Shown: one piece after another, positions 3,915 to 57,373 of the stretch | Layout: each line of letters begins with the position of its first letter | Position numbering within the stretch: the first letter of the stretch is position 1 | Virus record (IMG/VR): IMGVR_UViG_3300008122_000001 | Coordinates: 119,706 to 183,705 of that record | Reading direction: 5' to 3' (one strand) | Length of the DNA stretch: 64,000 bases | Origin: a virus | Taxonomy: Duplodnaviria; Heunggongvirae; Uroviricota; Caudoviricetes | The notes under the pieces: generated by a model | Databases searched by the model: none | What the model saw: the letters and a program-made list of their open reading frames with translations, nothing else | What the model was told of the DNA's origin: nothing | Position numbers and translations under genes: made by a program

Positions 3915-4154
3915 ATGTCGAAATTAGATCATGGTTGTTTTGAATCTAATGATTATACTCATGGAGTATTAGATTTAGAATCAATGAATAATGATCCTTT
4001 AAAGTATGCTACACATTGTTTAAAAGCTAATGAAACTCAATTAGTAATTGAATCAACTGAAACATGTCCTCAGCTTTTATTCATTAATGGTTCTTGGCAA
4101 CCTAGTAACATTTATAAAGGTATCTTAAAACCTATTGAAAAGGAAGTGAAATGA
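3915..4154 (+). CDS. hypothetical protein
   Basis: ORF track; RBS gaggtaaaaa upstream; ATGA overlap with next gene. Confidence 0.5.
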   Translation: MSKLDHGCFESNDYTHGVLDLESMNNDPLKYATHCLKANETQLVIESTETCPQLLFINGSWQPSNIYKGILKPIEKEVK

Positions 4155-4609
4155 GTAATCAAGATCACGCTCTTAAAAATATTTTATATTTAACTTCTTG
4201 TGTATTAGAAGAAGATTCTAATCGAAATTATGGTAATAGAGATTCTTTTTTATTTAAATTACATAATAGTTGGGAAGAATTTATTAATAACTCTCCTTTA
4301 GGGTTAGACCCTTATCAGACTTTTAAAGATACATTTGTAATTAAAGAAGAATCTCAAGATTTAGATATTGAAATCTTATCTAAAATGAACAAGAAGCCTT
4401 GGAAATATTCTACTCATTCCGATTTTTCTTGTTCTACTTTTTATATGAATTTAAATTCTATTTGGTTATATTTTGATTTAAGTTCTCTTTGTTGGAAACA
4501 ATCTTCTATTAAAGCTGAGTATTTAGTTTCTCAATTAGAAAATAGTGATAAACAAAGATTTAAACAAAATCTTTATAAATTAGAACAATATTTAAAAGGA
4601 AAGAAATAA
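4151..4609 (+). CDS. hypothetical protein
   Basis: ORF track; start overlaps upstream stop (ATGA). Confidence 0.5.
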   Translation: MSNQDHALKNILYLTSCVLEEDSNRNYGNRDSFLFKLHNSWEEFINNSPLGLDPYQTFKDTFVIKEESQDLDIEILSKMNKKPWKYSTHSDFSCSTFYMNLNSIWLYFDLSSLCWKQSSIKAEYLVSQLENSDKQRFKQNLYKLEQYLKGKK

Positions 4610-4611
4610 CT

Positions 4612-5340
4612 ATGTGGTATTTCCTTTTAACATTAATTTCTATTGTTATTGGTGTTTATTTTGTTAATAAACATATTTATAAAGAAACTGAGAAAGAACT
4701 TGAAAAAAAGTTAAATATTCCAGTAAAAAATCAAATAGTTAACTTACCTAAACAAGATAAATTAACTTATGATTTAACTTCTTCTGATTATTTTTCAAAA
4801 TTATTTTTATTAAATTTACAAAAGAATACAACATTATATTCTGTTAATAAAGATAATTCTGAAGTAATTGAAAGGATTAAATTTATTGTCTTTGTATTAG
4901 ATAAAAAATCTAATTTATTTTTAAAACCTTTTCGATTTACTTCAGAAGGAGAAGGCTATAACAGTTATAAATATCAAACATGTAAAGATATTAATACTTT
5001 TATTGGATTATTAAAAGATAAAAATGATTATTTAAATAATTATTTTTCTTTTATTTCTAAATTAAATGTTCTTTTAGGTAGTAGTAATTTCTTTAGTAAA
5101 GAATATTCTAATGGTTATTTAATTGCTTCTTTATCTTTATTTGAAGCTTTTAAGCAAGTAATAGAAAATGATTCTAAAGAAATAGTTTCAAAAGATTATT
5201 TAGATGATCTTTTGAAAGAACTGAAAATAGTTGTAAAAAAATCTAATTTTATTAATTCTAAATTTGTTTTTTTACGTGATATGAAAATTGATATTAATGA
5301 TTCAACTGTCATCAAATCTATCAATTTATTTAAATCTTAA
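4612..5340 (+). CDS. hypothetical protein with N-terminal TM helix
   Basis: ORF track; MWYFLLTLISIVIGVYFV hydrophobic N-terminus. Confidence 0.5.
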   Translation: MWYFLLTLISIVIGVYFVNKHIYKETEKELEKKLNIPVKNQIVNLPKQDKLTYDLTSSDYFSKLFLLNLQKNTTLYSVNKDNSEVIERIKFIVFVLDKKSNLFLKPFRFTSEGEGYNSYKYQTCKDINTFIGLLKDKNDYLNNYFSFISKLNVLLGSSNFFSKEYSNGYLIASLSLFEAFKQVIENDSKEIVSKDYLDDLLKELKIVVKKSNFINSKFVFLRDMKIDINDSTVIKSINLFKS

Positions 5341-5351
5341 GAGTATATATT

Positions 5352-6035
5352 ATGTCTATTGCTAAATTTATTAATCGTTTCTTTTCTTCTGCAAATGTTA
5401 AAGCTCATGCTGCAATGGAAAAAGCTGATCAAAAAATTGATATTCAACAACATGCTAGTTATTTATTAGCTCAACAGAAAGAAAACGAAGTTAAAGTTAC
5501 TAATTCTCGTAATACTTTAATTAAACAACAACAAACTTTACTTAAAAATATTGAAACTAAACAAAATCGTTTAGATCTTATTGAAAAAATTGTTATTGCT
5601 GATCAAGATAAGCCTAAACGTGAAAAAACTACAGATTATACTCAAAAGTTTTTAACTGCTATTCATGAAGGTCCTTTGTTACAACAAAGTATTAATTCAA
5701 TGAAATTAAATTTAGAAGTAGTTAATAATGCTATTGATAAAACAATTGAAGATTTAGGTAAAATTGAACGTAATACTATTACTATTGAATCTCGTTTAGA
5801 AACATTAAAAACTAAAGATACATTAGCAACTATTAAATCTACTACTTATACTATTTCAGAAGCTAATCACTATTTCAGTATTGAAAAGTTAGAAGCTATT
5901 GTAGAAAATAAAGAAGTAGAAGCTAATACTGCTGAAAAAATCTTTGAAATGGATTCTCCTCTTTCATTAGAATCTGAAGTAACTAGTAATGATTTTATTA
6001 AATCAGTATTAGCTAAAAATTCTAAAAAGGATTAA
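5352..6035 (+). CDS. PspA/IM30 (phage-shock protein A / Vipp1)-like coiled-coil protein
   Basis: N-terminus MSIAKFINRFFSSANVKAHAAMEKADQKIDIQQ resembles the PspA N-terminus (M-x-I-x-x-RF-x-x-I-x-x-AN-x-x-A-x-x-x-KAEDP); length 227 aa close to PspA ~222 aa; coiled-coil throughout. Confidence 0.45.
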   Translation: MSIAKFINRFFSSANVKAHAAMEKADQKIDIQQHASYLLAQQKENEVKVTNSRNTLIKQQQTLLKNIETKQNRLDLIEKIVIADQDKPKREKTTDYTQKFLTAIHEGPLLQQSINSMKLNLEVVNNAIDKTIEDLGKIERNTITIESRLETLKTKDTLATIKSTTYTISEANHYFSIEKLEAIVENKEVEANTAEKIFEMDSPLSLESEVTSNDFIKSVLAKNSKKD

Positions 6036-6089
6036 TTAATCCTTTTAACTTGTAACAACAAAGTCTATATTTATTATTAAGGAATTATT

Positions 6090-6488
6090 ATGTCTAATTT
6101 AACTGTTACTTTTTTTGAATACAATGGCGCAATTGGTGCTGAAATTGATATTGATAAAGGTACATTTTTAAATGATCCTAAAGCCCCAGGTCAAATGGGA
6201 ACAGTTACTGATACTAAATATATTGGTATGCCTGAAGAAGTTAAACAAGCTATCCTAACACGTTATAAACGTGAAGGTGGTTCTTTCGCTTCTATGATGA
6301 TTTCTAAATCATCTAAAGGTGATAATATTGGTATTCTTGGTGGATATAAAGCTTGTTTAGCAACTTCTAAAACAGCTAATATTGAAATCAGTCGTGATTG
6401 TGATCTTTCAGTTTTAGATTCTTGTGTTAAAATTGAAAACAATCCTCCACAAGATTTTAAAGATTATATTGATTCTTTATCTAAATAA
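6090..6488 (+). CDS. hypothetical protein
   Basis: ORF track; RBS aaggaatta upstream. Confidence 0.5.
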   Translation: MSNLTVTFFEYNGAIGAEIDIDKGTFLNDPKAPGQMGTVTDTKYIGMPEEVKQAILTRYKREGGSFASMMISKSSKGDNIGILGGYKACLATSKTANIEISRDCDLSVLDSCVKIENNPPQDFKDYIDSLSK

Positions 6489-6498
6489 GGATATAGGT

Positions 6499-6732
6499 AT
6501 GAAACTATATGCAGTAATGTGTACAGAAAGTGAACAGCCTACTCATTTAGTAATTGCATTTAAAGAGTCAGAACTATTTTCAAAATTACATAGTATGTAT
6601 GAAATTAGTGAAAAATCTTTTAATGAGTTACGTGATACAAATTCAGCTCATGTTGAATATATAGATCCTTATGGTGGTACAGATTCTATTACAAAATATG
6701 TTCAATTATTTTTAGACACTACAGAATTTTAA
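6499..6732 (+). CDS. hypothetical protein
   Basis: ATG 6499 preceded by aaggatataggt RBS, just after the upstream stop (the track start at 6424 overlaps the previous gene). Confidence 0.45.
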   Translation: MKLYAVMCTESEQPTHLVIAFKESELFSKLHSMYEISEKSFNELRDTNSAHVEYIDPYGGTDSITKYVQLFLDTTEF

Positions 6733-6742
6733 AGGAAAATAT

Positions 6743-7381
6743 ATGTCTACACCTATTGTTCCATATAGCGATGCAACAGCTCTATTAGGTCAAGTTCATT
6801 CTACATTACAAAATCGTGATGCAGTACACGTTGCTTGTATTCAAGTAGAATTAGCAGAATCTTATCATATTGATAGTCCTGCTCAAATGCTTCGTATGAA
6901 TAATGAAGGTAAGTTTGTTCCTACAACAAATCGTGAACAAGCTTTAGGTATTTTAGATCCATTTATTACTAATTTTTATGATTTAAATGATGGTGATAAA
7001 GTTTGGTTAATTTTATTTCCAGGTATGATTCGTTCTTTATCTCATTATTGGGAACATGAAGCTTTTCCTCCTGCTCCTGTAGAACAATCTTTTACTGATT
7101 TTGTTTTAAAACAAAAAACAGATAAAGAAGCTTCAATTCCTCAAAATAAACTTTCAAGTTATCAATATTTAATTCGAATTGCTGAAAACTTAGAAATGAG
7201 TCTTGATCGTCTTCTTGCAGAAGCTCATGAAAAAGTATTAAATAATAATCATTATTATATTGGTAATTCGGAAGCAGAAGGTTATAGTGTTGGATCAGAT
7301 TTTTGGTTTCATTATGAAAATTATACTGAAACTCAAGTACCTGAGTCTCATAAAGAAAACTTTATTTCTTGTTCTTGTTAA
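6743..7381 (+). CDS. hypothetical protein
   Basis: ORF track; RBS aaaggaaaat upstream. Confidence 0.55.
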   Translation: MSTPIVPYSDATALLGQVHSTLQNRDAVHVACIQVELAESYHIDSPAQMLRMNNEGKFVPTTNREQALGILDPFITNFYDLNDGDKVWLILFPGMIRSLSHYWEHEAFPPAPVEQSFTDFVLKQKTDKEASIPQNKLSSYQYLIRIAENLEMSLDRLLAEAHEKVLNNNHYYIGNSEAEGYSVGSDFWFHYENYTETQVPESHKENFISCSC

Positions 7382-7451
7382 AAAGTAAATAAATTTATAA
7401 CTATTCTTTAATAGAGTAGTTATATGTGTATTTATTTAAAAAGGTATTAAT

Positions 7452-7889
7452 ATGCAATTTAATTTATTAATAGACAAACATCCTCTGTCTGTTACTATAC
7501 CTCAATCACAATTAAGTTTTAATGGGTTTAAAGATAAAGATTTAGTTGCTGTTTTATTTAATGGTAGTAATATTATAGCTGGATATTTAATGTTTTTATC
7601 TGAATTAAATATTAGTTATCCTGTTTTAATTAATTTAAAAGGTGAAGCAATAGAACTAATAAATATATATGGTATTAGTCATATTTCTACTGTCCCATTT
7701 GTTGAATTAAATAAAAATATTACTTCAGAAACATATCTTGAATATATTACCTTTAAATATTTAAATATAAATAATAATCCTTGTAGTGGTTATACTTTAG
7801 GTCAAATTTTAGATAAGATTAAAAAGGAATATGGTAATTTACAATTTAAATATAAAATTGTAAATAAACATATTTATTGTAATGTTTAA
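7452..7889 (+). CDS. hypothetical protein
   Basis: ORF track; 70-nt AT-rich leader upstream. Confidence 0.5.
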   Translation: MQFNLLIDKHPLSVTIPQSQLSFNGFKDKDLVAVLFNGSNIIAGYLMFLSELNISYPVLINLKGEAIELINIYGISHISTVPFVELNKNITSETYLEYITFKYLNINNNPCSGYTLGQILDKIKKEYGNLQFKYKIVNKHIYCNV

Positions 7890-11052: not shown

Positions 11053-11979
11053 ATGGGTGGTTCAAGTTTTTCTACAGCAGACTGGTCTCGTGCTTCTTCT
11101 ACAGTTCGTGATCAACCTTTACATAAGACAAATGTTTCATCTTCATTAAAAGATGAATTAAATCCTGCTCTTATGAAAAATAATTGTCGTGAATCTTGTG
11201 ATTCTGTACATAATCCTAATTCTACAGCTATTATTATTGGTCTAGATATGACTGGTAGTATGAGCAGTATTATTTCTCAAATTATGGGTAAAAGTTTAGG
11301 TACTTTATTTGAATATATTTATGATCGTAAACCTGTATCAGATCCACAAGTATTATTTTGTGCTGTTGGTGATGAAATGGCAGGCGATCCTGCTCCGTTT
11401 CAAGTAGGTCAATTTGAATCTGAATGTGGTCGTTTAATGACTACTCTTAAAGATTTCTGGGTTGATGGTTGTCGTGGTGGTAATAATGATGTTGAATCTT
11501 ATGATTTACCATATTTCTTTGCATCACATATGACTAAAATTGATTGTATGAAAAAACGTAATCAAAAAGGTTTTATCTTTACAATTGGTGATGAACCACC
11601 TCCATCTACATTAAGTCCAAAAACTGTTAAACGTGTATTTGGAATTGATATTCAAAAAGAAATTTCTTTTAAAGATTTAATTCAATTAACTTCACAATCA
11701 TACATTCCTTTTCATATTATTATGTCTGAAGGTTTCCATCCTAAATTACATGGTATTAACTCTGTATTACAGCCGTGGCAAAATCTTTTAGGTGAAAATG
11801 CAATTGTATGTGATGATTCAACTAAATTATCTGAAGTTATTACTAGTATTTTAGAAATTAAAGCTGGTAAAAATAAAACTGAAGTAATTAATAGTTGGGA
11901 TTCTACTACTACTCTTGTAGTACAAAAAGCTGTAGGCAACTTACCAGCTCAACAATCTGGTGGTCTTGTTTTTAATTAA
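11053..11979 (+). CDS. von Willebrand factor A (vWA) domain protein
   Basis: MIDAS motif IIIGLDMTGSMSS (DxSGS) followed by the beta-alpha pattern typical of a vWA fold. Confidence 0.6.
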   Translation: MGGSSFSTADWSRASSTVRDQPLHKTNVSSSLKDELNPALMKNNCRESCDSVHNPNSTAIIIGLDMTGSMSSIISQIMGKSLGTLFEYIYDRKPVSDPQVLFCAVGDEMAGDPAPFQVGQFESECGRLMTTLKDFWVDGCRGGNNDVESYDLPYFFASHMTKIDCMKKRNQKGFIFTIGDEPPPSTLSPKTVKRVFGIDIQKEISFKDLIQLTSQSYIPFHIIMSEGFHPKLHGINSVLQPWQNLLGENAIVCDDSTKLSEVITSILEIKAGKNKTEVINSWDSTTTLVVQKAVGNLPAQQSGGLVFN

Positions 11980-12000: not shown

Positions 12001-13221
12001 ATGGAAAATGCAGTAGTTATTGGTTCTAATTATGGTGATGAATCTAAAGGTCGTACTACAGATTATTTAGTTAAACAAATGTTGAATCAGAAATTAAACC
12101 CTATTGTTGTACGTTTTAGTGGTTCTAATAATGCTTCACATACTGTATATCTAAATGAAACTACTTATCATGCTTTTAGTAGTATTGGTAGTGGAAGTTT
12201 CCGTAATGTTCCAACTTATCTTTCTGAGTTTTTTGCTGTAGAACCTCAAGCATTGATTAATGAATTAAATAGTTTTAAGTCTAAGTTTAATTATACTTCT
12301 ACTATCTTTATTGATCCAAATTGTTTATTGGTTACTCCTTATGATGTTGCTCTTAATCGTTTAAAAGAAACATTAAAGGGTAATCATAAACATGGTTCAA
12401 CTGGTTCTGGTTTAAATGAATGTAAACAACGTAGCAAAACGCATCCATTCTATATTAAGGATTTGTTAACTGGACAAAATACTGAATTATTTAATAATAT
12501 TTATGCTTATTTTATTAAGCAGTTACAATATTTAATTGATCAATATAAATTAGATATCGAAACATTAGATTCTGATTTAAAAGATTTACTTTATATTACA
12601 CTTAATATGAAGTTTATTGATGCATTCTATTCTCATTATTCTAGTTTACTAGATAACCCTCATATTACCTTAGAAACTCCTGATTTAAAAGAATACTCTT
12701 GTGTATTTGAAGGTTCTCAAGGTTTAGCATTAGAGGAAGATTATCATAATTTTCCTTATGTTACTCACTCAAAAACTGGTATTCGAAATGTTCTAGAAAT
12801 TTGTGTAAAACATGGTATTGAACTTACTGATGTTTATTACCTCTCTCGCACTTATCTCTCTCGTCACGGTTTCGATCCAAACTTTAATACTTGTCATCAC
12901 AAAAATGTGTTAGAAGATTTTAATATCTTTGATGTAACTAATGTATATAATCCTTGGCAAGGTTCTATGGTATTTAATTATCTAAATATTAATGAATTAG
13001 AATCTCGAATTAATACTGATTTTAAACATTGTTTAGAAGTCTTTCCTAATTGTTTAGAACATCGTGTATTCTCTTGTGTAGATCAAATTAAAGGTAAATA
13101 TAAAGTAGTTATTGATAATACACTACACGTATTTCCTTCATTCAATGATTTTTTAAATTTGTATATGGAACAGTTTAAAATTTCTTTTGTTACTTCTTTC
13201 ACTTCCCCTATTAATAGTTAG
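12001..13221 (+). CDS. adenylosuccinate synthetase family protein (PurA/PurZ-like)
   Basis: P-loop VVIGSNYGDESKGRTTDYL (PurA GDEGKGK), SNNASHTVY (PurA NAGHT catalytic His) and GSTGSGLNE (PurA GTTGRGIGP) all present in the right order. Confidence 0.75.
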   Translation: MENAVVIGSNYGDESKGRTTDYLVKQMLNQKLNPIVVRFSGSNNASHTVYLNETTYHAFSSIGSGSFRNVPTYLSEFFAVEPQALINELNSFKSKFNYTSTIFIDPNCLLVTPYDVALNRLKETLKGNHKHGSTGSGLNECKQRSKTHPFYIKDLLTGQNTELFNNIYAYFIKQLQYLIDQYKLDIETLDSDLKDLLYITLNMKFIDAFYSHYSSLLDNPHITLETPDLKEYSCVFEGSQGLALEEDYHNFPYVTHSKTGIRNVLEICVKHGIELTDVYYLSRTYLSRHGFDPNFNTCHHKNVLEDFNIFDVTNVYNPWQGSMVFNYLNINELESRINTDFKHCLEVFPNCLEHRVFSCVDQIKGKYKVVIDNTLHVFPSFNDFLNLYMEQFKISFVTSFTSPINS

Positions 13222-23521: not shown

Positions 23522-23700
23522 ATGTTAAAGAAAGATATTTTTATTGGTCAATCAGTTGGTTTCACTTATAAAGGAACTAAGATCTTAGGTACAATAAAAG
23601 GATTTTGTGCTCAATATTCTGAAACACATGTTTTCGTAGATATTGGACATGATGTAATACGAAAACGTTTTGATACTATGTTAGGCGTAGTGCAATAAAA
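23521..23700 (+). CDS. small hypothetical protein (59 aa)
   Basis: own translation MLKKDIFIGQSVGFTYKGTKILGTIKGF...; ATG overlaps upstream stop; below the track size cutoff. Confidence 0.4.
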
Positions 23701-23837
23701 GTTTTAAAACTAATTACTGTAGAGTTTTGGAAAAATAACGAAACTAAAACTCTACTAGTATTTAAACAAGTTATATTTTTGTTTAGATATAACTTCTTTA
23801 GATATAAATTTCTTTATTATAAACAAGGTTGTGTTAA

Positions 23838-26800
23838 ATGAATACTCAAATTGGGTTAAAAGGTAATTTTAAATCTGTTCCTTATATTCCAGAAAATCTA
23901 TCACCTAAAGATATAGGTCAACTATTTCCGCCAGGTTTTGATGATATTATTGAATATTCTGTAGATGAATTTACTAAATCTATTAATATCACAATTTTAA
24001 CAGACACTAACAAAGAAAATACAATTATTACTCTTAGTGAAAATCTGTATAACCCGTCAAAGAACAAATGTTTCTTTCCTAAATTCCTCATTGAACAACA
24101 TCACAATTTTCCTAAAATTAATTACTTAACTGATCAACGTGATCGTTTTGTTTTTAATCAAAATGAATTGTTTTATATCTGTTTACAACACCGTTTAGTA
24201 GACTTTAAACGTTTTAAAGATGCTTATGGTAACTTAGTAAATAATGATATTAAATCTATTATGAATTTTATTGGTTATATTCCTAATACTGCATACAATG
24301 CTATTCAACGTGATAAGCATTCGTATATTTTATTAGATATTTATGACGATAAAACTAAAGCTTTAAAAGTTGTATCTAAAAAACAATGTTTAGGTAATAT
24401 CTTAAAACATCGTAAATATCACCCTACTAAAGAGAAGTTAAAAGCTTTATTGCCTACACTTCCTTTACATTTTTCTTCAGAATCTATGGGTGAAAAATCT
24501 AAGTATGTTTTACATGATTATAACTCTCCTTTATACCGTTCTGTAGGTTATAAAATGGAGTTAGATTCAAAAAATAATCCTTATGTTTTAAGTCTATTTC
24601 CACCTAAACAAAATATTCCTGCTCGTAATAAAACGCATGTAACTTCAGATGCATGTGCTTTAGCAAATTTTGTACCAACTTCGAAATTTATTCAAGATTA
24701 TCTTCCAAATTTGGAAGAACAACGTTTTGATCCTAAAGATCATTGTTATAAAAAATCTTTATGTGTTATTCATCCGATGTTGGAAAATGGTAAATTTTTA
24801 TATGGTGAAATTTATGCTTCTGAATCTTTTGTATCTACTGAAGTAATTGTTCGTGAAACAATTAAAGATCAATTTGAAGAGATTTTCATTGAAGAAAACA
24901 AAACATATTATTCAGATAGTAACAATCAAATTAAAGTTGGTTTAAATATTGAAAACCAACCATTATATTTGGAAAATTGTATTTCTGCTAAATTAACAAG
25001 TGTTCAAATCTTGGGTACTTTAGGTGTACAGAAATTAGTTTTTGATGTTGTACGTCATGCTGGTAATGCTCGTATTGATTCTAATACTGGTTTAAAAGGT
25101 GTAACAACTTGTCGTAATAATCTTGGTACTATCCATATTCCTGAACTTAATAAAGAATTAAAACCAGATCTAGTATTTGGTATGAACTCTTTTAAAGCTA
25201 AAGGAAATGGTATTATATTAGCTCGTGCTGCTCTTGCAGTAGAATTAGGTTTATATCGTCCATCAAATGTATTTGGTTATTTAAATACATGGGATACAGA
25301 TGAAATCAATCGTGCTTCTAATTCATTACCAGAATATTATTATATTGATGATTTAGGTAACAAACAAACAGTACAAATTGGTATTGTATATGCTCGTTTT
25401 ACTGAATTATGTTATATCTATAAGTCATATAAACCTAACAAGCCATTTAGTTTTGAATCAGGTCGTGTATTACAAAGCTTAACAGACAATCGTTTGTTTA
25501 CTAATATTTGGGAAAATTATGTTTCTGAAGATTATAAATCAATTGTAATTGAATTAGAAAAGATTCTTTTAGATAAAAAGAATATTTTTGAAGATGAAAT
25601 TCCAATTTATACAGTTGAAGGGATTCGAAATAAAAAGATTTTTAGTCATAAAGATCTGATTTTAAATATCCGAACATCAACTGAATCTTTATCTTGTTTA
25701 CTTGATGAAGATTGGAATAAAGGATTTATTATTAATTTTGTCCCTAATGGTGGAAAATGTGTACGTATTCCTTGTGCAAAAACTCTTAAATTATTCTGTA
25801 CTCAAACAGATGATAAAATGTACATGTACCCATCTTTATTAATTGAAATTTCTAAAATGATTAATTCCATTTTAAATAATTCAATTCAATTGTTGTTTCC
25901 TCGTACAGAAACAAATTATGCAAAAAATAATACACCAGTAATTCGTTATTATCGTGAAGTTAAAGGTTTATTGTTTTCTTCTGAAGAAGCTTCTGTAATG
26001 TTAATTCAAAAGCTTTCTCGTCCAGAAATTCCTGGATTTGCATTTAAACAAGTAACTGATTATATTTTACCAGATAACACTTGTGTACTTATGTGTAATA
26101 AGACATATAATAAAGCTATTGAAAATGCTTTAGGTGAAGATGCTGATTTACATGCTTTAACTTATAACTTCTATGGTTTACATGTTCGTGCTCCTTCTCT
26201 TTGGCGTAAACAGAACATTCCAGTTAAGATTTGGAATCAAGATGATTTTCGTATTTATCTTTGGTCTAAATTTGGTATTAAGTTAGAAAACTATATTAAT
26301 ACTAAATGGAATAATGACGTTGTAATCTTTAGTAATAATGTATGTCGTAACAGTCAATCGGATATTGATGGCGATCATAGTACTGTATTTACACCAGAAG
26401 GATTAGAAGTTCAAGAATGTCTTCGTACTTATAAAGACGATCATGTTGTAGAAGCTGAACATGAATGGATTCAAGATTACATTAAAGGCGAAATGGAGTC
26501 TAATGAAGATTTAATTAATGAAGATGGTACTTTAGTTAATCATGTTTATACTTTATATACAGTATATTTACATGATGTTAAAGTAAATCGTAAAGAAGTT
26601 AAAACTGGTTTCTCAACTTTCTTATATCGTGCTATTACAGCTAAAGCTAACATTGGTTTAAGTACTAATGATGGCTGGATCTTTAATATGATTCTTGATT
26701 TATACCAAAAGTATTATCAAGCTAATGATGGTAAATACCAAGTTACTGAAACATCTGAAGAAAAAGCAATGTATCGCTTATCTGAAGATCAACGTGATGA

Positions 26801-27257
26801 AATTTCATTTGTTTATACTAAAGCTCTACAAGATTTTGTAGTACGTGGCGTTAAACATACTGATAATGGTAGTGAAGATTTTGAAGTATTATTCTTGAAG
26901 AATATTTGGAAAGCTGATAATGCTAAAAATGTCTTTAAGTTATTAACTAACGATCTACGATTACCTAATATGTTGGCATCTAAAATGATGTTTATTATTA
27001 CTTGGGCACAAGACATGGGCTTCTTATTAGGTTGTTCAGCATTCCTTAAGTTGTATAACAAAGGAACTATTCCTACAGGTGATGCTGCTGTAGCTTTAGA
27101 ACAACATGAATCGTTTATTCAATCTAATACTTACTTTGGTACATTACTTGAACCTGTTTACAAATTACGTCAACAGGCTAAAGATTATACTCAAGTTAAG
27201 AAAGTAGAACGAAAACAAGTGACTTATGTAGATCCTTTAGCTGCAATGGGTTTTTAA
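23838..27257 (+). CDS. large protein, candidate single-chain two-barrel (DPBB) RNA polymerase
   Basis: 1139 aa; FGMNSFKAKGNGIIL (cf. beta-subunit RHGNKGV) at ~aa 445 and NVCRNSQSDIDGDHSTVF (cf. beta-prime NADFDGD) at ~aa 860, in the beta-then-beta-prime order of YonO/crAss-like/RdRP-type enzymes. Confidence 0.45.
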   Translation: MNTQIGLKGNFKSVPYIPENLSPKDIGQLFPPGFDDIIEYSVDEFTKSINITILTDTNKENTIITLSENLYNPSKNKCFFPKFLIEQHHNFPKINYLTDQRDRFVFNQNELFYICLQHRLVDFKRFKDAYGNLVNNDIKSIMNFIGYIPNTAYNAIQRDKHSYILLDIYDDKTKALKVVSKKQCLGNILKHRKYHPTKEKLKALLPTLPLHFSSESMGEKSKYVLHDYNSPLYRSVGYKMELDSKNNPYVLSLFPPKQNIPARNKTHVTSDACALANFVPTSKFIQDYLPNLEEQRFDPKDHCYKKSLCVIHPMLENGKFLYGEIYASESFVSTEVIVRETIKDQFEEIFIEENKTYYSDSNNQIKVGLNIENQPLYLENCISAKLTSVQILGTLGVQKLVFDVVRHAGNARIDSNTGLKGVTTCRNNLGTIHIPELNKELKPDLVFGMNSFKAKGNGIILARAALAVELGLYRPSNVFGYLNTWDTDEINRASNSLPEYYYIDDLGNKQTVQIGIVYARFTELCYIYKSYKPNKPFSFESGRVLQSLTDNRLFTNIWENYVSEDYKSIVIELEKILLDKKNIFEDEIPIYTVEGIRNKKIFSHKDLILNIRTSTESLSCLLDEDWNKGFIINFVPNGGKCVRIPCAKTLKLFCTQTDDKMYMYPSLLIEISKMINSILNNSIQLLFPRTETNYAKNNTPVIRYYREVKGLLFSSEEASVMLIQKLSRPEIPGFAFKQVTDYILPDNTCVLMCNKTYNKAIENALGEDADLHALTYNFYGLHVRAPSLWRKQNIPVKIWNQDDFRIYLWSKFGIKLENYINTKWNNDVVIFSNNVCRNSQSDIDGDHSTVFTPEGLEVQECLRTYKDDHVVEAEHEWIQDYIKGEMESNEDLINEDGTLVNHVYTLYTVYLHDVKVNRKEVKTGFSTFLYRAITAKANIGLSTNDGWIFNMILDLYQKYYQANDGKYQVTETSEEKAMYRLSEDQRDEISFVYTKALQDFVVRGVKHTDNGSEDFEVLFLKNIWKADNAKNVFKLLTNDLRLPNMLASKMMFIITWAQDMGFLLGCSAFLKLYNKGTIPTGDAAVALEQHESFIQSNTYFGTLLEPVYKLRQQAKDYTQVKKVERKQVTYVDPLAAMGF

Positions 27258-33001: not shown

Positions 33002-33334
33002 ATGTTAGACAAACTATTAGTTCAAGAATGGTTATCTGAGTTTGTAGATACATTTTTAAAATCTAGGTATGAACTACAATATACAGATTTTTTATTATCT
33101 GAAAATAGTGGTTATTTTTATATTAAATTTAAAGATAAACTACAACATCTTTATGTATTAAATGGTAATTATAAATTTAATACTCATTTAGTTCTTCGAT
33201 GCCCTTCTTCAAATATTTATAATAAACCTGATAAACACGGGTTATATACTTATTTACATTCTTTATTAGACAACTCAGATGTCTATTCACAATATTTAGT
33301 GAGATTATATAATGTCCCTTTACCAACAAATTAA
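33002..33334 (+). CDS. hypothetical protein
   Basis: ORF track. Confidence 0.5.
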   Translation: MLDKLLVQEWLSEFVDTFLKSRYELQYTDFLLSENSGYFYIKFKDKLQHLYVLNGNYKFNTHLVLRCPSSNIYNKPDKHGLYTYLHSLLDNSDVYSQYLVRLYNVPLPTN

Positions 33335-33746
33335 AACTGAACAATTAGAAGCACGTAAAGCTAAGATTACATTACATACAAATTTGTATACTACTTTACT
33401 TGGTGAAATTCAAACAGCAACTGCTGGTCTTAAAAATGGTTCATCTGAAATTTCAGATTCAGACGTTCTTCGTGTTATTACAAAATTTATAAAAAATGCT
33501 AAAGATTCTCTTGCATTACGTCCTGATAATACTACTGTAAGTTTAGAATTAAAATTGTTAGAAACTTTTTTACCTAAACAATTAACAGACGAACAACTTA
33601 CTGCAATTATTGTAGAAGTTAAAACTCAATGCCATGCTAATTTACAACCTAATGCGATTATAGGTTTTGTAATGAAGCATCTTAAAGCTAACTATGAAAA
33701 TCAGTACGATGCTTCTAAAGTTAAAGATATTGTATTAGGTTTATAA
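33312..33746 (+). CDS. GatB/YqeY-domain protein
   Basis: LLETFLPKQLTDEQL and IGFVMKHLKANYENQYDASKVKDIV match the YqeY consensus (yLP-qLseeEl ... mGkvMg ... gkaDgk-v). Confidence 0.55.
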   Translation: MSLYQQIKTEQLEARKAKITLHTNLYTTLLGEIQTATAGLKNGSSEISDSDVLRVITKFIKNAKDSLALRPDNTTVSLELKLLETFLPKQLTDEQLTAIIVEVKTQCHANLQPNAIIGFVMKHLKANYENQYDASKVKDIVLGL

Positions 33747-33832
33747 TATGGTTAGTAAAGATTTAGGATTAATTGCAAGTAATGGTAAATATTATTCTCC
33801 TAAATATTGGACTTAAATAAGGAAATACAAGA

Positions 33833-34069
33833 ATGTATAAAGTTAAAGATCATGGTGGTGAAAAACTATCAAACAATTTTGTATCAATTGCTTTTAATCG
33901 ACATGATGATACTTATCACATTATTTGGAATAGTCGTTTTAAAACACCATTAAATAAAACATATCGTTTAAGTAATGATTATGATTTTGGATCTATTGAT
34001 GTTAAAGATGCGTTAGTAGAAGCATATCAGAACCCTTCTCTTGTAGCTCCTGGATTAACTTTAATATGA
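33833..34069 (+). CDS. hypothetical protein
   Basis: ORF track. Confidence 0.5.
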   Translation: MYKVKDHGGEKLSNNFVSIAFNRHDDTYHIIWNSRFKTPLNKTYRLSNDYDFGSIDVKDALVEAYQNPSLVAPGLTLI

Positions 34070-34842
34070 AATATGAATTAAAAACAATTGTTACTGCTTT
34101 TAATAGTATAAAAGAAGTGGTAGGTAATAGAAATTTAGGTATTACTAAACAGCTTTATTCTGTTATTGTTTCTTTACCAGATAATCCAATTTATTATCTT
34201 ATTTTTAATAATACTCGACATAAGTATAAAGTATTATTAGAACAAGATGAAGAAATTATTTTAGATACTAAAATATTTATTTCAACACTTAAACCTTTAA
34301 AAGCATATAAATTATCTATTAATGATCAAAAAATAGATACTGGGTTTGCTACAATACAGACTTCTTCTAATAAGCAGAAAATTACAGAAGAAGAAGTTTG
34401 TATTGGTAATATTCAACAAGAACATTTAAATCATTATTTAGACAATAGTTTATATTTAAATACTAATATAGATTTTAGTGAATATTTATATTCTTATAAA
34501 ATAGAAGAAGAAATTTTACAAAAGATTTCTTTTGTAAATATTGAAACTAATGTTTTTATTACTCTTTGTGAAGACAAAACAAGTAATTTAATGAATACTC
34601 ATTTACATGATGGTGTACTTTATTCTAATAATATTGTTCGAATAGAACAAGTTATGAAAAGAATTAAAGATTTCATCCCAACTAAATTAGCAACTCAGTT
34701 AAAAATTCAACGTTCTCAGTATGTAAGTCGATTACAACAAATATATGTAATGTATAGTAATGTAGATGTACATACTTTACCAGATCGTGCTCTGTTTAAT
34801 TCTCTTTGTGATGAACTTGAAATGATAATTCACCCTAAATAG
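34066..34842 (+). CDS. hypothetical protein
   Basis: ORF track; ATGA overlap. Confidence 0.5.
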   Translation: MKYELKTIVTAFNSIKEVVGNRNLGITKQLYSVIVSLPDNPIYYLIFNNTRHKYKVLLEQDEEIILDTKIFISTLKPLKAYKLSINDQKIDTGFATIQTSSNKQKITEEEVCIGNIQQEHLNHYLDNSLYLNTNIDFSEYLYSYKIEEEILQKISFVNIETNVFITLCEDKTSNLMNTHLHDGVLYSNNIVRIEQVMKRIKDFIPTKLATQLKIQRSQYVSRLQQIYVMYSNVDVHTLPDRALFNSLCDELEMIIHPK

Positions 34843-34986
34843 GATACTATAATGTTTATCTTTAATCTTTTAAAAAACTTTGCTTTAGGTTTTATCCAAA
34901 ATATTATTGGAAAGTTTTTTATAAAACTTATTTTTCATTAATAATAGTTAAAAACTATTTGTTGAAATTTAATTAATAGGTAGTTT

Positions 34987-35271
34987 ATGAAATCAGATAA
35001 AGATGCTTATCGTTTTATTTTATTATTTAGACAGTTTATGTTAGTAAATAATAAAACAAAATTTAGTTCTATTGAATTAAAAGATATAAGCAATCAATTA
35101 ATTTCAATTCTAAAATTAAATAAAAAATATTCTCCTCAGTATATTATTTTATTATTAGAGAAATATGGAATTAAAGATATTTTAAATAAACATTCAAAAT
35201 CAAATCGTGGTAAACTTTGGTTTTGTGAACCTTTAAATCCGCAAACTTTGAAGGTTAAAATAAATGTATGA
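34987..35271 (+). CDS. hypothetical protein
   Basis: ORF track. Confidence 0.5.
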   Translation: MKSDKDAYRFILLFRQFMLVNNKTKFSSIELKDISNQLISILKLNKKYSPQYIILLLEKYGIKDILNKHSKSNRGKLWFCEPLNPQTLKVKINV

Positions 35272-35518
35272 TTTAAACATTTTAGAAGATTTTAGAATAG
35301 AATTAAAAGAAGAACTCTCTCAAGAAGATCGTCATAAACTTCTTTTAATTCTTTTTTCATATGGTTTCTTTTGGATAGCTGGTATTAAAGATGAATTATC
35401 TGAAGTAAAATCTTTTGTTTATATTGCAAACAGAAAGATTTATCATACTGATTCTTTCTATTCTTCTTGGGAACATTTTCCTCTACTTACGTATGAGGAA
35501 ATTATTAATGGAAATTGA
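35264..35518 (+). CDS. small protein, LLxIL-SYG paralogue family
   Basis: HKLLLILFSYGFFW core. Confidence 0.5.
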   Translation: MYDLNILEDFRIELKEELSQEDRHKLLLILFSYGFFWIAGIKDELSEVKSFVYIANRKIYHTDSFYSSWEHFPLLTYEEIINGN

Positions 35519-35762
35519 TTTCCATACCATTGAAAATTTTAAGATCCATTTGCCCCACACCCTTTCAAAAGTAGATAGAGATAAAATCCAATTAGTACTA
35601 ATGTCTTATGGTATTAATTGGGACACTAAACATAAAAAACTTTTAGATTTACAAGATATTGTATATGTTAAAGACAGAAATATGTATCATAGTGAGAGTC
35701 TTTTTTACCGTTGGGAACATTTTCTTAAGATAGATTATAAGGATGTTTTAGATGGATATTAA
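35508..35762 (+). CDS. small protein, LLxIL-SYG paralogue family
   Basis: ATG 35508 overlaps the upstream stop; DKIQLVLMSYGINW core. Confidence 0.5.
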   Translation: MEIDFHTIENFKIHLPHTLSKVDRDKIQLVLMSYGINWDTKHKKLLDLQDIVYVKDRNMYHSESLFYRWEHFLKIDYKDVLDGY

Positions 35763-36000
35763 TTTAAATAAGATGGGTTTTAATCTTGAAGGTGTACCAT
35801 TAAATATTCGTCAAAAATTAGAACTTATTTTATTATCATATGATAATATTAATTGGTGTGCTACTAAAAAAAGATTAGATACACATTTACATGAACATGT
35901 CTCAATATATATTGAACGAGGTCAGATTTATGCTTCTTGTTCTCCTTTAACTTCATATTTTACAGAATTAAACATAAATGATTTTATTAAAAATCATTAA
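35752..36000 (+). CDS. small protein, LLxIL-SYG paralogue family
   Basis: QKLELILLSYDNINW core. Confidence 0.5.
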   Translation: MDINLNKMGFNLEGVPLNIRQKLELILLSYDNINWCATKKRLDTHLHEHVSIYIERGQIYASCSPLTSYFTELNINDFIKNH

Positions 36001-36009
36001 GGAAATAAC

Positions 36010-37047
36010 ATGACACAAACAGTTAGTGTACCAGGTACAGAACATAACTTAGGACGTACTGTAGCAGACTTTATGTATGTAGAAGCTACAGGCAAACCTA
36101 AATTAAATAAGCGTTCATATCAAAATAAAATGAACATTGCTTTTAAACAAACAGAAGCTGAATTAAATAAAGACTTAACTAAGTTTTTTCAAGATTCAGG
36201 ATTAGTCTTAAAACATTTTAAAGTATATCATAGTAGTCATTTACTAAGTAAAGATCTACGTATTGCTAATTTCCGTTCTTTTGCAAATGGTTTAACTTTT
36301 ATTGTATTTGAATTTGAAAATAATGCACCATTATTCTACTTCACTATTTGCTCTAAAGACGATAACTTTAGTCGATTAGAAGGTCGTGTATATGCTAAAC
36401 GTAAAGCATTACGTGCATTAACTACTGAAGGTATTGCTGGTCTATTTTCTTATCCTACAGATCCACAATATACATCTAGTATTAATCCATTGAAAATTGG
36501 TAATTGGATTGTTAAACATCATATCTTACCAGAAAAAGAAAAGAAAATTGTTCCAGTAAATGCTTTAAAATACCAAGATGAAGAAAAACTTCTAGGTATG
36601 GCTAAAGAAGTATTAGGTACTAAATATAAATTAGATCCTTCTACATTTAAACTTACTTCTCAATATATTCGTTTCTATCGTAATAAAACTTTTGCTCATG
36701 GTTTAGTTTGTACTCCTGAATGGTTTAAAACACTAGATCAAGAAGGTAAAGAACTCATCTCTAATGGTGGCTATACAGTCTATTCTATGGTAGGTGTTGA
36801 AAAAGAAACTGGGAAACGTTTTGCTGTTGTAACTTTTGCTATCTGTTCTAAAGATGAAGCATTTACTAAATCTTATGGACGTAAGCAATGTTTAATCAAC
36901 TTTATTAAAGATAAAGTTGAAGTGTTCTCTATGGAAAAAGAAGTACCTTCAATGAAAAATGCTTTAATTTCTTTAGCTGAAACTTCTTTACAACATGCTA
37001 TTAATGTTAAAATTGAACCAAAAGAAGCACCCCCTTTAGTGTCTTAA
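36010..37047 (+). CDS. hypothetical protein with internal duplication, probably highly expressed
   Basis: FTICSKDDNFSRLEGRVYAKRKAL repeated as FAICSKDEAFTKSYGRKQCL; good RBS; followed by terminator. Confidence 0.6.
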   Translation: MTQTVSVPGTEHNLGRTVADFMYVEATGKPKLNKRSYQNKMNIAFKQTEAELNKDLTKFFQDSGLVLKHFKVYHSSHLLSKDLRIANFRSFANGLTFIVFEFENNAPLFYFTICSKDDNFSRLEGRVYAKRKALRALTTEGIAGLFSYPTDPQYTSSINPLKIGNWIVKHHILPEKEKKIVPVNALKYQDEEKLLGMAKEVLGTKYKLDPSTFKLTSQYIRFYRNKTFAHGLVCTPEWFKTLDQEGKELISNGGYTVYSMVGVEKETGKRFAVVTFAICSKDEAFTKSYGRKQCLINFIKDKVEVFSMEKEVPSMKNALISLAETSLQHAINVKIEPKEAPPLVS

Positions 37048-37053
37048 TAGATT

Positions 37054-37081
37054 AAGGGGATAAACACTATCCCCTTATTTA
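37054..37081 (+). terminator. putative intrinsic terminator
   Basis: 9-bp stem AAGGGGATA/TATCCCCTT with 5-nt loop, then ATTTA. Confidence 0.55.
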
Positions 37082-37101
37082 TACTGTAAAGGAATTATAC
37101 T

Positions 37102-37497
37102 ATGTCTGAAACCAAAATATTCACTATGTTTATAACAAGTGCATTATTAATTGCTTTTTTAATAATTAAAGGTTTTAATTATTTAGATGATAAAAAAGAT
37201 TATTATGAATTGTTAAAAGAACTAAATAGTGTAGAAGAAACATTAGCTATTTTAAAAGCTAAAAACGAATTGAAACAAATTGAATCAAAACAACCTCAAA
37301 TTAATAAGTTAGTAGCGTATTGTTTACGTAATGTAACTGAACCTGTTCTTGTTTCAGATATGACTAAATGTAAAGATGATGCAATTAAGTTTTTAGGTTA
37401 TGATGAATCTTTTACATCTATTAAAAATAAGTCTAATACTCTTGTTAAATTAGATTTAGAAACGTATTTAAAATTAAAGGAAAAGCATGGTTTCTAA
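37102..37497 (+). CDS. hypothetical protein with N-terminal TM helix
   Basis: ORF track; IFTMFITSALLIAFLII. Confidence 0.5.
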   Translation: MSETKIFTMFITSALLIAFLIIKGFNYLDDKKDYYELLKELNSVEETLAILKAKNELKQIESKQPQINKLVAYCLRNVTEPVLVSDMTKCKDDAIKFLGYDESFTSIKNKSNTLVKLDLETYLKLKEKHGF

Positions 37498-37891
37498 AAA
37501 CATAATATTTACTACTATAGGTGTAATGTTTGTTTTAGTTCTTGTTATTTTAAATAACTCTCTTGTTGAATCTTCAAAAATTAAAGCAGAAGAATTAAAG
37601 GCTAAAAAGTATTTATATTCTTCTGCTGAAATTATACATGCTAGAAAAGTTTTAAATGAAATAAAAATAGCAGAAGAAAATAAAGAAATGTATGACCTTT
37701 GTTTAACAGACGCTAGAGAGTTTCAAGAAAACAAACAAGCATCTAATATATTTATTAATCAATATTGTAAACAAAGAGTTAGACGTTATTTTGGATTACC
37801 TTCTACAGAAGAAGAGTACACAAAATTAAAAGAGATTGCATCAAGACCTTTACCACAATCTATAACGTACAATCAAGAAAAAGATCTCTAA
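37487..37891 (+). CDS. hypothetical protein with N-terminal TM helix
   Basis: ORF track; IIFTTIGVMFVLVLVIL. Confidence 0.5.
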   Translation: MVSKNIIFTTIGVMFVLVLVILNNSLVESSKIKAEELKAKKYLYSSAEIIHARKVLNEIKIAEENKEMYDLCLTDAREFQENKQASNIFINQYCKQRVRRYFGLPSTEEEYTKLKEIASRPLPQSITYNQEKDL

Positions 37892-37905
37892 TTTTAAGGA
37901 GACTT

Positions 37906-38097
37906 ATGTATACTTTTTTTCAGGTTAAAAATTTACAAATCAATGATTTTAATTATTTTTGCTATTCTTTAGGTTATACTTATAAAGTAAAAACTAAAAA
38001 AGAAAAAGAAATTTTAGATAAATGTATTAATGCTATGCATAATGCACGATTACTTTATAATATTAATTATAGAAAATATTTTGAAGCAAATCCATGA
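37906..38097 (+). CDS. hypothetical protein
   Basis: ORF track. Confidence 0.45.
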   Translation: MYTFFQVKNLQINDFNYFCYSLGYTYKVKTKKEKEILDKCINAMHNARLLYNINYRKYFEANP

Positions 38098-56946: not shown

Positions 56947-57298
56947 CTTAGATTTGCAGAAACTGTATTGATAAAACATCTCAAAGAAGTATCTATGGAA
57001 TACTTAATGCTCAAGGTAAAGTAATTAGATTTACTTTTTCTAAATCCTTAGCATTATTTTTATGTACTTATGATCCCACTTATACTCATAGAAAATTTAG
57101 ATTTAAAGTTGGTGATATAGCTAACCCAAGTTCTAAAGATTGTGTGTTTGCTATTGTTTCATATACTGGTGCTGTTTTAAGAATGGCTACTACTTATGAT
57201 AGAGCAGAAGTATTGTGTGATAATAATTATAGATTTGTTTTTGAAGCTAAAATCAAAATGAAATAAATTAATTTATATATGGGTTTTGAAAGTAATTG

Positions 57299-57373
57299 TA
57301 TAGTGTAACTCAGTTGGTAGAGTAGTCTTCCCTTTCGGAGGAAAAGTCGCTGGTTCGAGTCCAGTCTTATATG
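57299..57373 (+). ncRNA. tRNA-like element (canonical D- and T-arms, non-canonical anticodon region and acceptor)
   Basis: D-arm ACTC-AGTTGGTA-GAGT and T-arm GCTGG-TTCGAGT-CCAGT are textbook; the middle segment forms TCTTC-CCTTTCG-GAGGA (C33, UUU, C37) and the acceptor does not pair. Confidence 0.3.

Follow-up and report, generated by a model that had tools for sequence, protein, structure and literature searches.

An unrecognised 1139-residue phage protein with the predicted fold of a single-chain two-barrel RNA polymerase

Results

The 1139-aa protein encoded at positions 23838..27257 (+) of the analysed stretch of phage DNA (64,000 nucleotides in total, hereafter referred to as the window) is, in our reading, a single-polypeptide two-barrel nucleotide polymerase and most probably the DNA-dependent, non-virion RNA polymerase (RNAP) of an ME3-related phage; we put the probability of this reading at roughly 0.8, there being no biochemical data. 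As enzymes of transcription, two-barrel RNA polymerases are universal, and their minimal single-chain versions are prized for the study of core requirements and evolution. An earlier note, made from the DNA alone, had described the protein as a candidate of this kind, which is supported by the fold and by residue conservation. The gene is complete and uninterrupted, starts with ATG and has exactly the extent and length given there. The phage from which it stems is most probably large, AT-rich and related to the Acinetobacter jumbo phage ME3.

Predicted fold and domain layout

According to the structure model, the protein has the fold of an RNAP catalytic core, with the beta-like and the beta-prime-like halves joined in one chain. 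The structures matched by this predicted fold were exclusively RNAPs, and the structural alignments with the catalytic subunits of multisubunit RNAPs had 8-13% identity. The structural similarity to archaeal PolD DP2 was not closer than that to RNAPs, as membership in that group would require. The chain (all feature coordinates below are on the plus strand) begins with an alpha/beta region without assigned equivalent (aa 1-295, 23838..24722, approximate boundary, from the secondary structure of the model), in which R263 is one of the invariant columns of the homolog alignment. It is followed by the beta-like double-psi beta-barrel DPBB-B (aa ~296-470, 24723..25247; aa ~335-407 form a beta-rich insert), a flexible inter-module linker with a pLDDT <50 (aa 715-719, 25980..25994) and the beta-prime-like barrel DPBB-A (aa ~730-851, 26025..26390). 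The earlier note would have been refuted by a model without such barrels or by an aspartate loop outside of them; two DPBB domains form the predicted catalytic core, and the aspartate triad sits in barrel A.

Conservation of the catalytic residues

Barrel A contains S-D-I-D-G-D (aa 841-846, 26358..26375), the predicted magnesium-binding aspartate triad as judged from conservation and alignment to beta-prime. The surrounding motif SQSDIDGDHSTVF, which had been likened to the magnesium-binding loop of beta-prime, was found at aa 839-851 with DIDGD at 842-846, about 20 residues away from the previously indicated position of ~860. DIDGD is the single match to the pattern D.D.D in the whole protein, D842, D844, G845 and D846 were observed in 42/42 full-length homologs, and the triad aligns with D460/D462/D464 of beta-prime, which fulfils the expectation of an invariant DxDxD triad in barrel A. 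A second hallmark is an invariant R-x-P that precedes the triad by 20-100 residues (Rpb1 R446/P448; PMC2919709, PMC10770324). It corresponds to RAPSLW (aa 784-789, 26187..26204), the equivalent of NRAPTLH in beta-prime, in which R784, P786 and W789 are invariant (R784 and P786 in 42/42) and P786 is separated from D842 by 55 residues; the pattern [RK]xPx{20,100}DxDxD was passed by all 42 members.

Barrel B of known enzymes contributes two invariant basic residues (Rpb2 K979/K987; beta K1065/K1073). They are matched by R412 (42/42) and K420 (41/42 full-length homologs) in the loop RIDSNTGLKGV (aa 412-422, 25071..25103), the equivalent of GDK-MAGRHGN-K-GV of beta. In hhalign, R412 was aligned with K1065 and K420 with K1073, with the same spacing of eight residues, albeit at a weak score (E 0.03-0.05). 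Thus, R412 and K420 are the two predicted basic catalytic residues, their role in catalysis being inferred from sequence. The motif FGMNSFKAKGNGIIL, previously reported at ~445 as a counterpart of RHGNKGV, is present at aa 447-461 (25176..25220) and contains K453, which is invariant in the 42 full-length homologs; it aligns with beta 1098-1113 (LNPLGVPSRMNIGQIL). Barrel B is further expected to contain an acidic residue (Rpb2 D837; QDE-1 D709). The candidate for this residue, the eighth of the universal ones, is E324 (24807..24809), the sole conserved acidic position within this barrel, which adjoins the invariant G323 and is E in 39, D in one and C in two of the 42 sequences; it is Glu and not Asp, and its register to beta E813/D814 remains unproven. 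Since D842, D844, G845, D846, R784, P786, W789, R412 and K453 are invariant across 42 full-length homologs with identities as low as 18%, the catalytic motifs are far beyond chance.

The region after barrel A was interpreted from the secondary structure of the model and from invariant columns. A 38-residue helix (aa 925-962, 26610..26723) with the invariant residues K936, T943 and W947 is proposed as bridge helix, and a helix-loop-helix (aa 983-1016, 26784..26885), at the end of which K1006 is invariant and H1007 occurs in 40/42 sequences, is, by its position only, a putative trigger-loop equivalent. Sequence homology was not significant for these elements, as hhalign to beta-prime 740-960 was no better than the reversed control (E 0.28 versus 0.38 for the control), and the likeness of 'STNDGW' to 'KTANSGY' of beta-prime exists by eye only. 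The all-helical C-terminal domain (aa 1020-1139, 26895..27254) is possibly a clamp element, by analogy with the layouts of single-chain two-barrel RNAPs in PMC10770324.

Distribution of the family

The 1139-aa protein had no Pfam hits, even at E<=10, and in particular no Rpb1 or Rpb2 domain. Its lone match in PHROGs was phrog_23609, of unknown function (E 0.005), searches of the PDB sequences by phmmer and with the family profile gave noise only, and whole-protein hhalign to known RNAPs was weak (E 0.012 and 0.047). The family is invisible to these three types of search and is named by no source. It comprises 149 representative clusters at 50% identity, on contigs of up to ~250 kb, none of which was identified as YonO-like; P0176 and P0180, the weakest of the profile hits, were without matches in Pfam and PHROGs and could not be assigned to a known family, P0176 also being without tblastn matches in the phage collection. 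For the exact protein of the window, the longest recorded contig measures 183.7 kb. Among 185,579 representative genomes of bacteria and archaea, no relatives were detected, IMG/VR contained just two, and a megablast search of the phage collection with 24 kb of the window gave no matches.

The sole cultured phage with a family member is Acinetobacter phage vB_AbaM_ME3, whose gp152 and gp154 together constitute a true homolog, 99% of the query being aligned at 43% identity; their BFVD models were matched at E 1e-73 and 2e-19. The phage itself has reportedly been lost (PMC8878043). Both are annotated as hypothetical proteins, and the gene is interrupted in ME3, whereas it is uninterrupted in the window.

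Group I introns and split genes in relatives

The interruption in ME3 consists of a group I intron of ~1.27 kb carrying the endonuclease gp153, inserted after the codon equivalent to S787, and because of it the gene is annotated as two unrelated hypothetical proteins. Projected onto the window gene, which is without intron, this insertion point lies after nt 26198 within RAPSLW, and those of the introns in the relatives L002 and L003 lie after nt 26363 (D842 codon) and nt 26369 (D844 codon), respectively. In L002, positions 11258-11585 matched Rfam RF00028 with 58.4 bits (gathering score 50, E 7e-13). For ME3, a first scan over 2.4 kb was empty and a narrower one matched at L001 9256-9621 with 45.9 bits, which is under the gathering score (E 1.2e-10). 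The junctions, GAT/AAAC... and ...TTCG/GTA in L002 and AGT/TAAT... and ...TTCG/TTA in ME3, have a 5' exon ending in U and an intron ending in G, and thus, together with the RF00028 matches, meet the definition of group I introns. The landing of several such introns in catalytic codons explains why the gene was missed by annotation and motif filters.

In another relative, L009, two ORFs take the place of the single gene, the first ending at query aa 717 and the second resuming at aa 726. This form occurs in one clade, and the break falls at the flexible linker (aa 715-719). A 739-aa form was present in 9/11 members of a cluster, from independent sources.

Comparison with known polymerases

Multisubunit RNAPs, i.e. 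bacterial beta/beta-prime, Rpb2/Rpb1 and the non-virion RNAPs of phiKZ and AR9, comprise ~2,750 aa in at least two subunits as compared to one chain of 1139 aa; membership in this group was rejected on the grounds of the missing Pfam Rpb1/Rpb2 match and the single chain (the two-ORF form occurring in one clade). SPbeta YonO, a DNA-dependent two-barrel RNAP (PMC5467207), resembles the 1139-aa protein in being a single phage polypeptide, with the beta-like barrel before the beta-prime-like one, a DxDGD-type triad and, as predicted for the 1139-aa protein from gene position, no association with the virion. YonO differs in length (839 aa), and membership in its family was likewise rejected, since hhalign of the family profile aligned an unrelated segment (E 0.71) and BLASTP was empty. 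The non-virion RNAPs P23-45 gp64 and P74-26 gp62 and the virion RNAP P23-45 gp96 (PMC10770324) have ~9-11% identity, and the 1139-aa protein is nearly double the length of gp62. There is no sequence-level match to these RNAPs, as the family profile finds nothing among the PDB sequences. In all, PMC10770324 comprises 23 curated families of two-barrel enzymes. Identities to crAss-like phage phi14:2 gp66 and to QDE-1 and RDR2 were 8-13%; QDE-1 and RDR2, eukaryotic RNAi polymerases, use RNA or single-stranded templates.

Proposed role and alternative explanations

We propose that the polymerase would be synthesised after infection and not carried in the virion. The basic residues R412 and K420, along with K453 and probably E324, would come from the N-terminal beta-like barrel. 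The C-terminal beta-prime-like barrel would provide R784-x-P786 and D842/D844/D846, the triad expected to bind the catalytic magnesium ions. The helix at aa 925-962 may act as bridge helix and the helix-loop-helix with K1006-H1007 as trigger loop. In this way, phage middle or late genes could be transcribed without the host enzyme. The data show the fold of the model, the conservation of residues, the distribution of the family and the introns and split gene of relatives; catalysis, DNA template, RNA product, timing of expression and host-independent transcription of these genes are all inferred. Points against the proposal are the weak sequence-level links to known RNAPs, the uncertain register of E324, the lack of sequence support for bridge helix and trigger loop, the absence of a recurring promoter motif in the window and the failure to trace the putative ME3 virion RNAP (gp036, see below) to the lineage of the window phage.

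Alternatively, the enzyme could be packaged in the virion and injected with the DNA for transcription of the earliest genes, like crAss gp66, P23-45 gp96 and the phiKZ virion RNAP. We regard this as unlikely, as the gene is neither in nor near a virion module (the window holds accessory genes only, and the ME3 homolog is located ~175 kb away from the head and tail genes) and its product has no giant ejection or tape-measure protein as fusion partner. Membership in the gp66 type, described as a virion protein of 2,166 residues that carries DFDxD, was rejected by inference from the length of 1139 aa and the same gene positions. A better candidate for a virion RNAP in ME3 is the tail-module protein gp036, with REPAQG...DHDQD. 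The C-terminal half of gp036, the putative virion RNAP, had no homologs in other phages and could not be traced to the lineage of the window phage, and hhalign of gp036 against the 1139-aa polymerase family found nothing.

It appears improbable to us that the two-barrel polymerase serves a purpose other than transcription, whether as a QDE-1-like RNA-dependent RNA polymerase, as a primase in replication or as a DNA polymerase of the PolD type. Coincidental motifs or a catalytically dead structural relative, for which only the failure of every sequence library to recognise the protein can be cited, are hardly conceivable and effectively refuted by conservation, since a dead enzyme would not retain DxDGD, RxP and the basic residues unchanged in homologs of as little as 18% identity. 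Moreover, no catalytic-site residue varies in the family of 149 representative clusters, the introns target exactly the catalytic codons and the fold matches are exclusive to RNAPs.

Returning to a non-virion RNAP, ME3 is listed among the jumbo phages without RNAP (PMC7824862), and the non-nucleus-forming jumbo phages of its group were classed in 2021 as dependent on host RNAP and sigma factors. The polymerase fold in an unrecognised protein means that giant phages of one group, thought to lack a transcription enzyme of their own, very probably have one and, if the protein is active, it alters the understanding of transcription in the ME3-type group. More tentatively, the family might be a miniaturised beta-like/beta-prime-like fusion nearer to the cellular multisubunit lineage than to that of YonO, QDE-1 and crAss, with fused and two-ORF forms extant, which together with the gp036 domain would provide host-independent transcription in non-nucleus-forming jumbo phages. 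A compact enzyme of 1139 aa with natural fused and split forms would be useful for structural and biotechnological study.

Genomic context and upstream region

Genes in the window are oriented in one direction, as had been remarked before, with 39/40 ORFs of at least 150 aa on the plus strand. Alpha, omega and sigma partners were not evident in the window. The 'near absence of sigma70-like promoters' stated in the earlier note is unsupported: 64 consensus sites were found in 20-30 kb as compared to 77 +/- 8.8 in shuffles, and as the scan is at chance level in DNA of 25% GC, nothing can be concluded from it. Two candidates for phage-specific promoters, TTAGATATAA and TTTAAACAAGTTATAT, were not enriched in the window (51 matches versus 42 expected and 13 versus 14.5, respectively), and intergenic k-mer enrichment, including ATAGCTA, revealed no shared context and no recurring promoter consensus there. 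For the ORF-free stretch at 52263-54434, TAG recoding was ruled out, as every type of stop codon occurs densely in each of the six frames.

Directly upstream of the polymerase gene lies an ORF (23522..23698) of 58 aa, and not 59 as noted earlier, which is conserved in close relatives only: at the same position, L003 has a version of 90% identity and L002 one of 31%, and the ORF was undetectable in ME3 and L006. The 9-bp hairpin described after it has the perfect core TAGAGTTTT/AAAACTCTA and extends to a 12-bp stem (23719..23755; stem 23719-23730/23744-23755), the sequence of which is not conserved in L002. An inverted repeat, AAGTTATAT...ATATAACTT (23758..23805), is located 35-80 nt upstream of the ATG; it is gene-specific, the block TATTTAAACAAGTTATAT not recurring in the window (13 matches versus 14.5 expected). 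The leader of 139 nt folds at -30.2 kcal/mol (z = -3.58), and TATTTAAACAAGTTATAT is preserved without any change in a relative that has a protein of just 71% identity (alignment A3).

Identification and fold of a probable polymerase

The open reading frame at 23838..27257 on the + strand was found exactly as the earlier note had claimed, with an ATG start and a product of 1139 amino acids. The note proposed a single-chain two-barrel RNA polymerase (RNAP) with beta-like and beta-prime-like double-psi beta-barrels (DPBBs), and its underlying observation was confirmed with small positional corrections. The second motif, SQSDIDGDHSTVF, spans aa 839-851, and its DIDGD (aa 842-846), about 20 residues earlier than had been estimated, is the only match to D.D.D in the whole protein. 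The first motif, FGMNSFKAKGNGIIL (aa 447-461), lies in the correct barrel but corresponds to beta LNPLGVPSRMNIGQIL rather than to the RHGNKGV loop for which it had been taken. The gene contains only short minus-strand ORFs (57 and 82 aa), and the window, with a GC content of ~25%, carries 39 of its 40 ORFs of at least 150 aa on the + strand.

Sequence searches with this protein were largely unproductive. Pfam gave no match even at E<=10, PHROGs a single weak match to a family of unknown function, and phmmer against PDB sequences only noise; a family profile built from 42 full-length members did not match any PDB sequence either. An AlphaFold2 model was calculated from a 37-sequence family alignment without templates and reached a mean pLDDT of 90.0 and a pTM of 0.86, with aa 715-719 as its sole internal low-confidence segment. 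Foldseek of the model against the PDB returned 49 matches at E<=1e-3 (best 7d58_B, 6.8e-8), all of which were beta/Rpb2-type or bacterial beta-prime chains. Structural comparison scores were highest for plastid PEP beta (13.1), M. tuberculosis beta-prime and Pol IV/V subunit 2 (12.0 each), RPA1 (11.9) and the phiKZ non-virion RNAP (11.7), followed by P74-26 gp62 (11.2), the AR9 non-virion RNAP (11.0), P23-45 gp96 and crAss phi14:2 gp66 (10.6 each), QDE-1 (10.4) and RDR2 (8.7); below these came isolated DPBB domains at 7.2 and under, and archaeal PolD DP2 scored 6.0. The proposal would have been refuted by missing DPBBs or by a DxD motif in another context; since the fold matches are to RNAP chains, this is not the case, and the interpretation is supported. 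We put the probability that the protein is a two-barrel nucleotide polymerase at about 0.95.

Predicted catalytic residues

Two-barrel enzymes share eight universal residues, R-x-P and D-x-D-x-D in one barrel and two basic residues plus one Asp in the other (PMC2919709, PMC10770324). In an alignment of the 42 full-length members, with identities down to 18%, the invariant columns were R263, G323, R412, K453 (inside FGMNSFKAKGNGIIL), G515, P645, R784, P786, W789, D842, D844, G845, D846, K936, T943, W947 and K1006; K420 (41 of 42) and H1007 (40 of 42) were nearly so. Comparison of the family profile with authentic E. coli RpoC and RpoB by hhalign gave one alignment apiece, each on the catalytic loops. 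Residues 779-868 aligned with beta-prime 420-486 (E 0.012), pairing RAPSLW with RAPTLH and SDIDGD with ADFDGD, and residues 398-457 aligned with beta 1050-1108 (E 0.047), placing R412 opposite K1065 and K420 opposite K1073 with the 8-residue spacing of the cellular enzymes. A focused comparison of residues 700-870 with beta-prime 300-500 reached E 4.6e-4 over 124 columns, against 0.75 for the reversed template. Conservation and registers together therefore account for seven of the eight universal residues, all of them invariant or almost invariant in the family. For the remaining one, E324 (39 Glu, 1 Asp and 2 Cys in the 42 members) is the probable candidate, although its register is uncertain.

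A 38-residue helix (aa 925-962) carries K936, T943 and W947, and a helix-loop-helix ends in K1006-H1007. These elements lie where the bridge helix and the trigger loop are expected; the assignment is inferred from position only, since sequence comparison for them was no better than the control.

Family distribution and relation to known enzymes

A word-indexed search recovered 44 homologs, unnamed in every source and on contigs of up to 249 kb, and when 1.84 billion representatives were searched in full with a HMMER profile, 149 clusters emerged at E<=1e-3, among them a distant clade of ~1,000-1,040 aa; 79 of the clusters reached E<=1e-30. Contigs of up to 183.7 kb from NCBI assembly GCA_031546405.1 and from JGI encode the identical protein, again without a name. 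In the phage collection, the Acinetobacter jumbo phage vB_AbaM_ME3 (234.9 kb) matched in two pieces, which cover 99% of the query at 43% identity, and the sole other match was a partial, unannotated record of Acinetobacter phage PBAB25. IMG/VR contained only two relatives, ME3 and a 242.6-kb genome (IMGVR_UViG_3300048571_000088), and a search of 185,579 representative genomes of bacteria and archaea found none.

The YonO sequence of the SPbeta record showed no similarity to either the family profile or the window protein; the two proteins share an architecture but are not the same family by sequence. All solved two-barrel RNAPs are about equally distant from the window protein in structure (8-13% identity). 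That E. coli beta and beta-prime, but not YonO, can be aligned with its loops hints at, without proving, a position nearer the multisubunit lineage.

We regard these proteins as a new family of the two-barrel RNAP superfamily, an orphan at the sequence level. No literature linking ME3 or Metrivirus to two-barrel polymerases was found, and such an enzyme is also absent from a 2026 jumbo-phage review. ME3, assigned to jumbo-phage group 2.2 (Iyer et al. 2021), is not listed in a 2024 table; little weight attaches to this, since entry in the table requires that two polypeptides be detected, and in the annotated ME3 products RxP and DxDxD are set apart by the intron. A prior description is not fully excluded, as the search did not extend to the Nature version of Drobysheva et al. 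or to the 23 curated family alignments.

Introns and split forms

Many homologs terminate within the catalytic motif, and in relatives group I introns, some with homing-endonuclease ORFs, interrupt the DxDGD and RxPSLW codons. In one contig (L002; protein 71% identical), exon 1 ends in ...SQSD and exon 2 starts with VDGDH ~1.1 kb further on; the interruption (L002 10521-11634, equivalent to a site after window nt 26363) contains an ORF of T5orf172 type along with a group I intron recognized by Rfam (58.4 bits, gathering threshold 50, E 7e-13). In a 98% identical relative (L003), an insertion from 2874 follows the D844 codon (after window nt 26369). The ME3 intron (45.9 bits, E 1.2e-10; 8395-~9690 of region L001, after window nt 26198) follows the S787-equivalent codon inside RxPSLW and carries the annotated endonuclease gp153. 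Counted among the representatives, ends fall at profile positions 842-846 in ~16 and at 786-788 in 6, and starts at 843-845 in 7 and at 785-787 in 8. Five small proteins cover exactly 786/787 to 843/845 and, judged by these boundaries, would be the mini-exon between two occupied intron sites. Since the cluster at >=90% identity to the window protein contains 1139/1140-aa, 846-aa, 787-aa and 297-aa forms, alleles with and without introns exist side by side in a single phage population, the window carrying the uninterrupted one. Phage group I introns typically target highly conserved sequences of essential genes, and their location here thus fits a strong constraint on these codons. Many cluster members of 134 aa hint at a further break near aa 134.

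In the 242.6-kb genome, the gene consists of two adjacent ORFs, 3977-6157 (query aa 10-717) and 6167-7465 (aa 726-1124, with RHPCLW...ADSDGD), and the break falls at the flexible linker of the model between the beta-like and beta-prime-like halves. A 739-aa N-terminal form makes up 9 of 11 cluster members and comes from NCBI, Logan and JGI, so the split is no assembly error. The two ORFs share one frame, with TAA and three codons between them, and this clade could have either a genuine two-subunit form or stop-codon read-through, which is not excluded.

Upstream region

The ORF upstream of the gene (23522..23698) is present as reported, with 58 rather than 59 aa, and is conserved among close relatives only. 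The 9-bp hairpin described there proved to be the core of a longer, 12-bp stem; the sequence of the hairpin 3' of the ORF is not kept in L002. An inverted repeat at 23758-23805 holds a 19-nt block that is identical in L002. This block occurs only once in the window, which suggests an operator or leader structure specific to this gene, possibly autoregulatory, and not a general promoter. A search for promoter motifs repeated across the window found none, and a sigma-70-type scan was at chance level, so the near absence of sigma70-like promoters, which had been invoked in favor of a phage-encoded polymerase, is not supported.

Genomic context and possible role

Among the 113 other called ORFs of the window, neither a sigma factor nor a DNA polymerase nor a virion module was found; one ORF, not mapped, weakly matches (7e-9) a PHROG family with the annotation portal protein. 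In ME3, the polymerase gene is found at 222-227 kb, surrounded by small and accessory genes and followed closely by one for a 2OG-Fe(II) oxygenase; the virion module, with annotated similarity to Bacillus phage 0305phi8-36, occupies 5-50 kb. A Foldseek search of viral models (BFVD) picked up another ME3 protein as well (A0A172Q021 segment 2, E 2.5e-6), whose size fits gp036. This protein of 1,603 aa is encoded at 33172-37983 of ME3 region L007, between a tape-measure-like protein and the baseplate hub, and has a single DxDxD (GGDHDQDQAAV, aa 1217) ~45 residues after an RxP-like REPAQG; no homologs were recovered. We regard gp036 as a candidate virion-packaged two-barrel RNAP. By analogy to P23-45, phiKZ and crAss-like phages (PMC10770324), the window protein would most likely be produced after infection as a non-virion RNAP, with the earliest transcription possibly left to a separate enzyme of the tail module. 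The combined claim of a DNA-dependent RNAP with a non-virion role appears likely to us, with less confidence in the timing.

The accessory genes of the window encode an ADP-ribosylglycohydrolase (1e-62), NADAR (5e-44), NUDIX, dUTPase, a PP-loop/QueC-like enzyme, a PAPS-reductase-like protein, GroES, a 2OG-Fe(II) oxygenase, endonuclease V, a PurA/PurZ-like synthetase and TROVE/Ro60; a bulk scan of the 113 ORFs added a Bax-inhibitor-like protein and a cREC_REC domain. NAD/ADP-ribose and nucleotide-related genes are abundant, and in ME3, genes for an NAD synthetase and for a protein with a macro domain (Appr-1-p processing) lie near the polymerase gene. The adenylosuccinate-synthetase homolog (406 aa, 12001-13221, + strand; Pfam 7e-38) has a PurZ-type '2-aminooxy adenylosuccinate synthetase' as best PHROG (8e-46); PurZ and PurA were not discriminated, and the phage might make 2-aminoadenine (Z) DNA. 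Z DNA could be a reason for a phage to carry its own polymerase. The TROVE/Ro60-like RNA-binding protein (444 aa, 48099-49433, + strand; Pfam 2.9e-5, phrog_850 8e-12) is encoded ~7 kb upstream of two tRNA genes (56697-56766 and 57297-57374, both + strand), one of which has the amber-suppressor-type anticodon CUA (ARAGORN label 'Pyl'). TAG is the rarest stop codon (10 of 130 called ORFs), and no TAG-interrupted gene was seen in the regions examined. Finally, a 2.2-kb stretch (52263-54434) without ORFs in six frames and of slightly higher GC content (0.29) has no Rfam match at E<=0.1, and its repeats are all short, one of them being a perfect inverted repeat of 21 nt (54127-54147 / 54246-54266).
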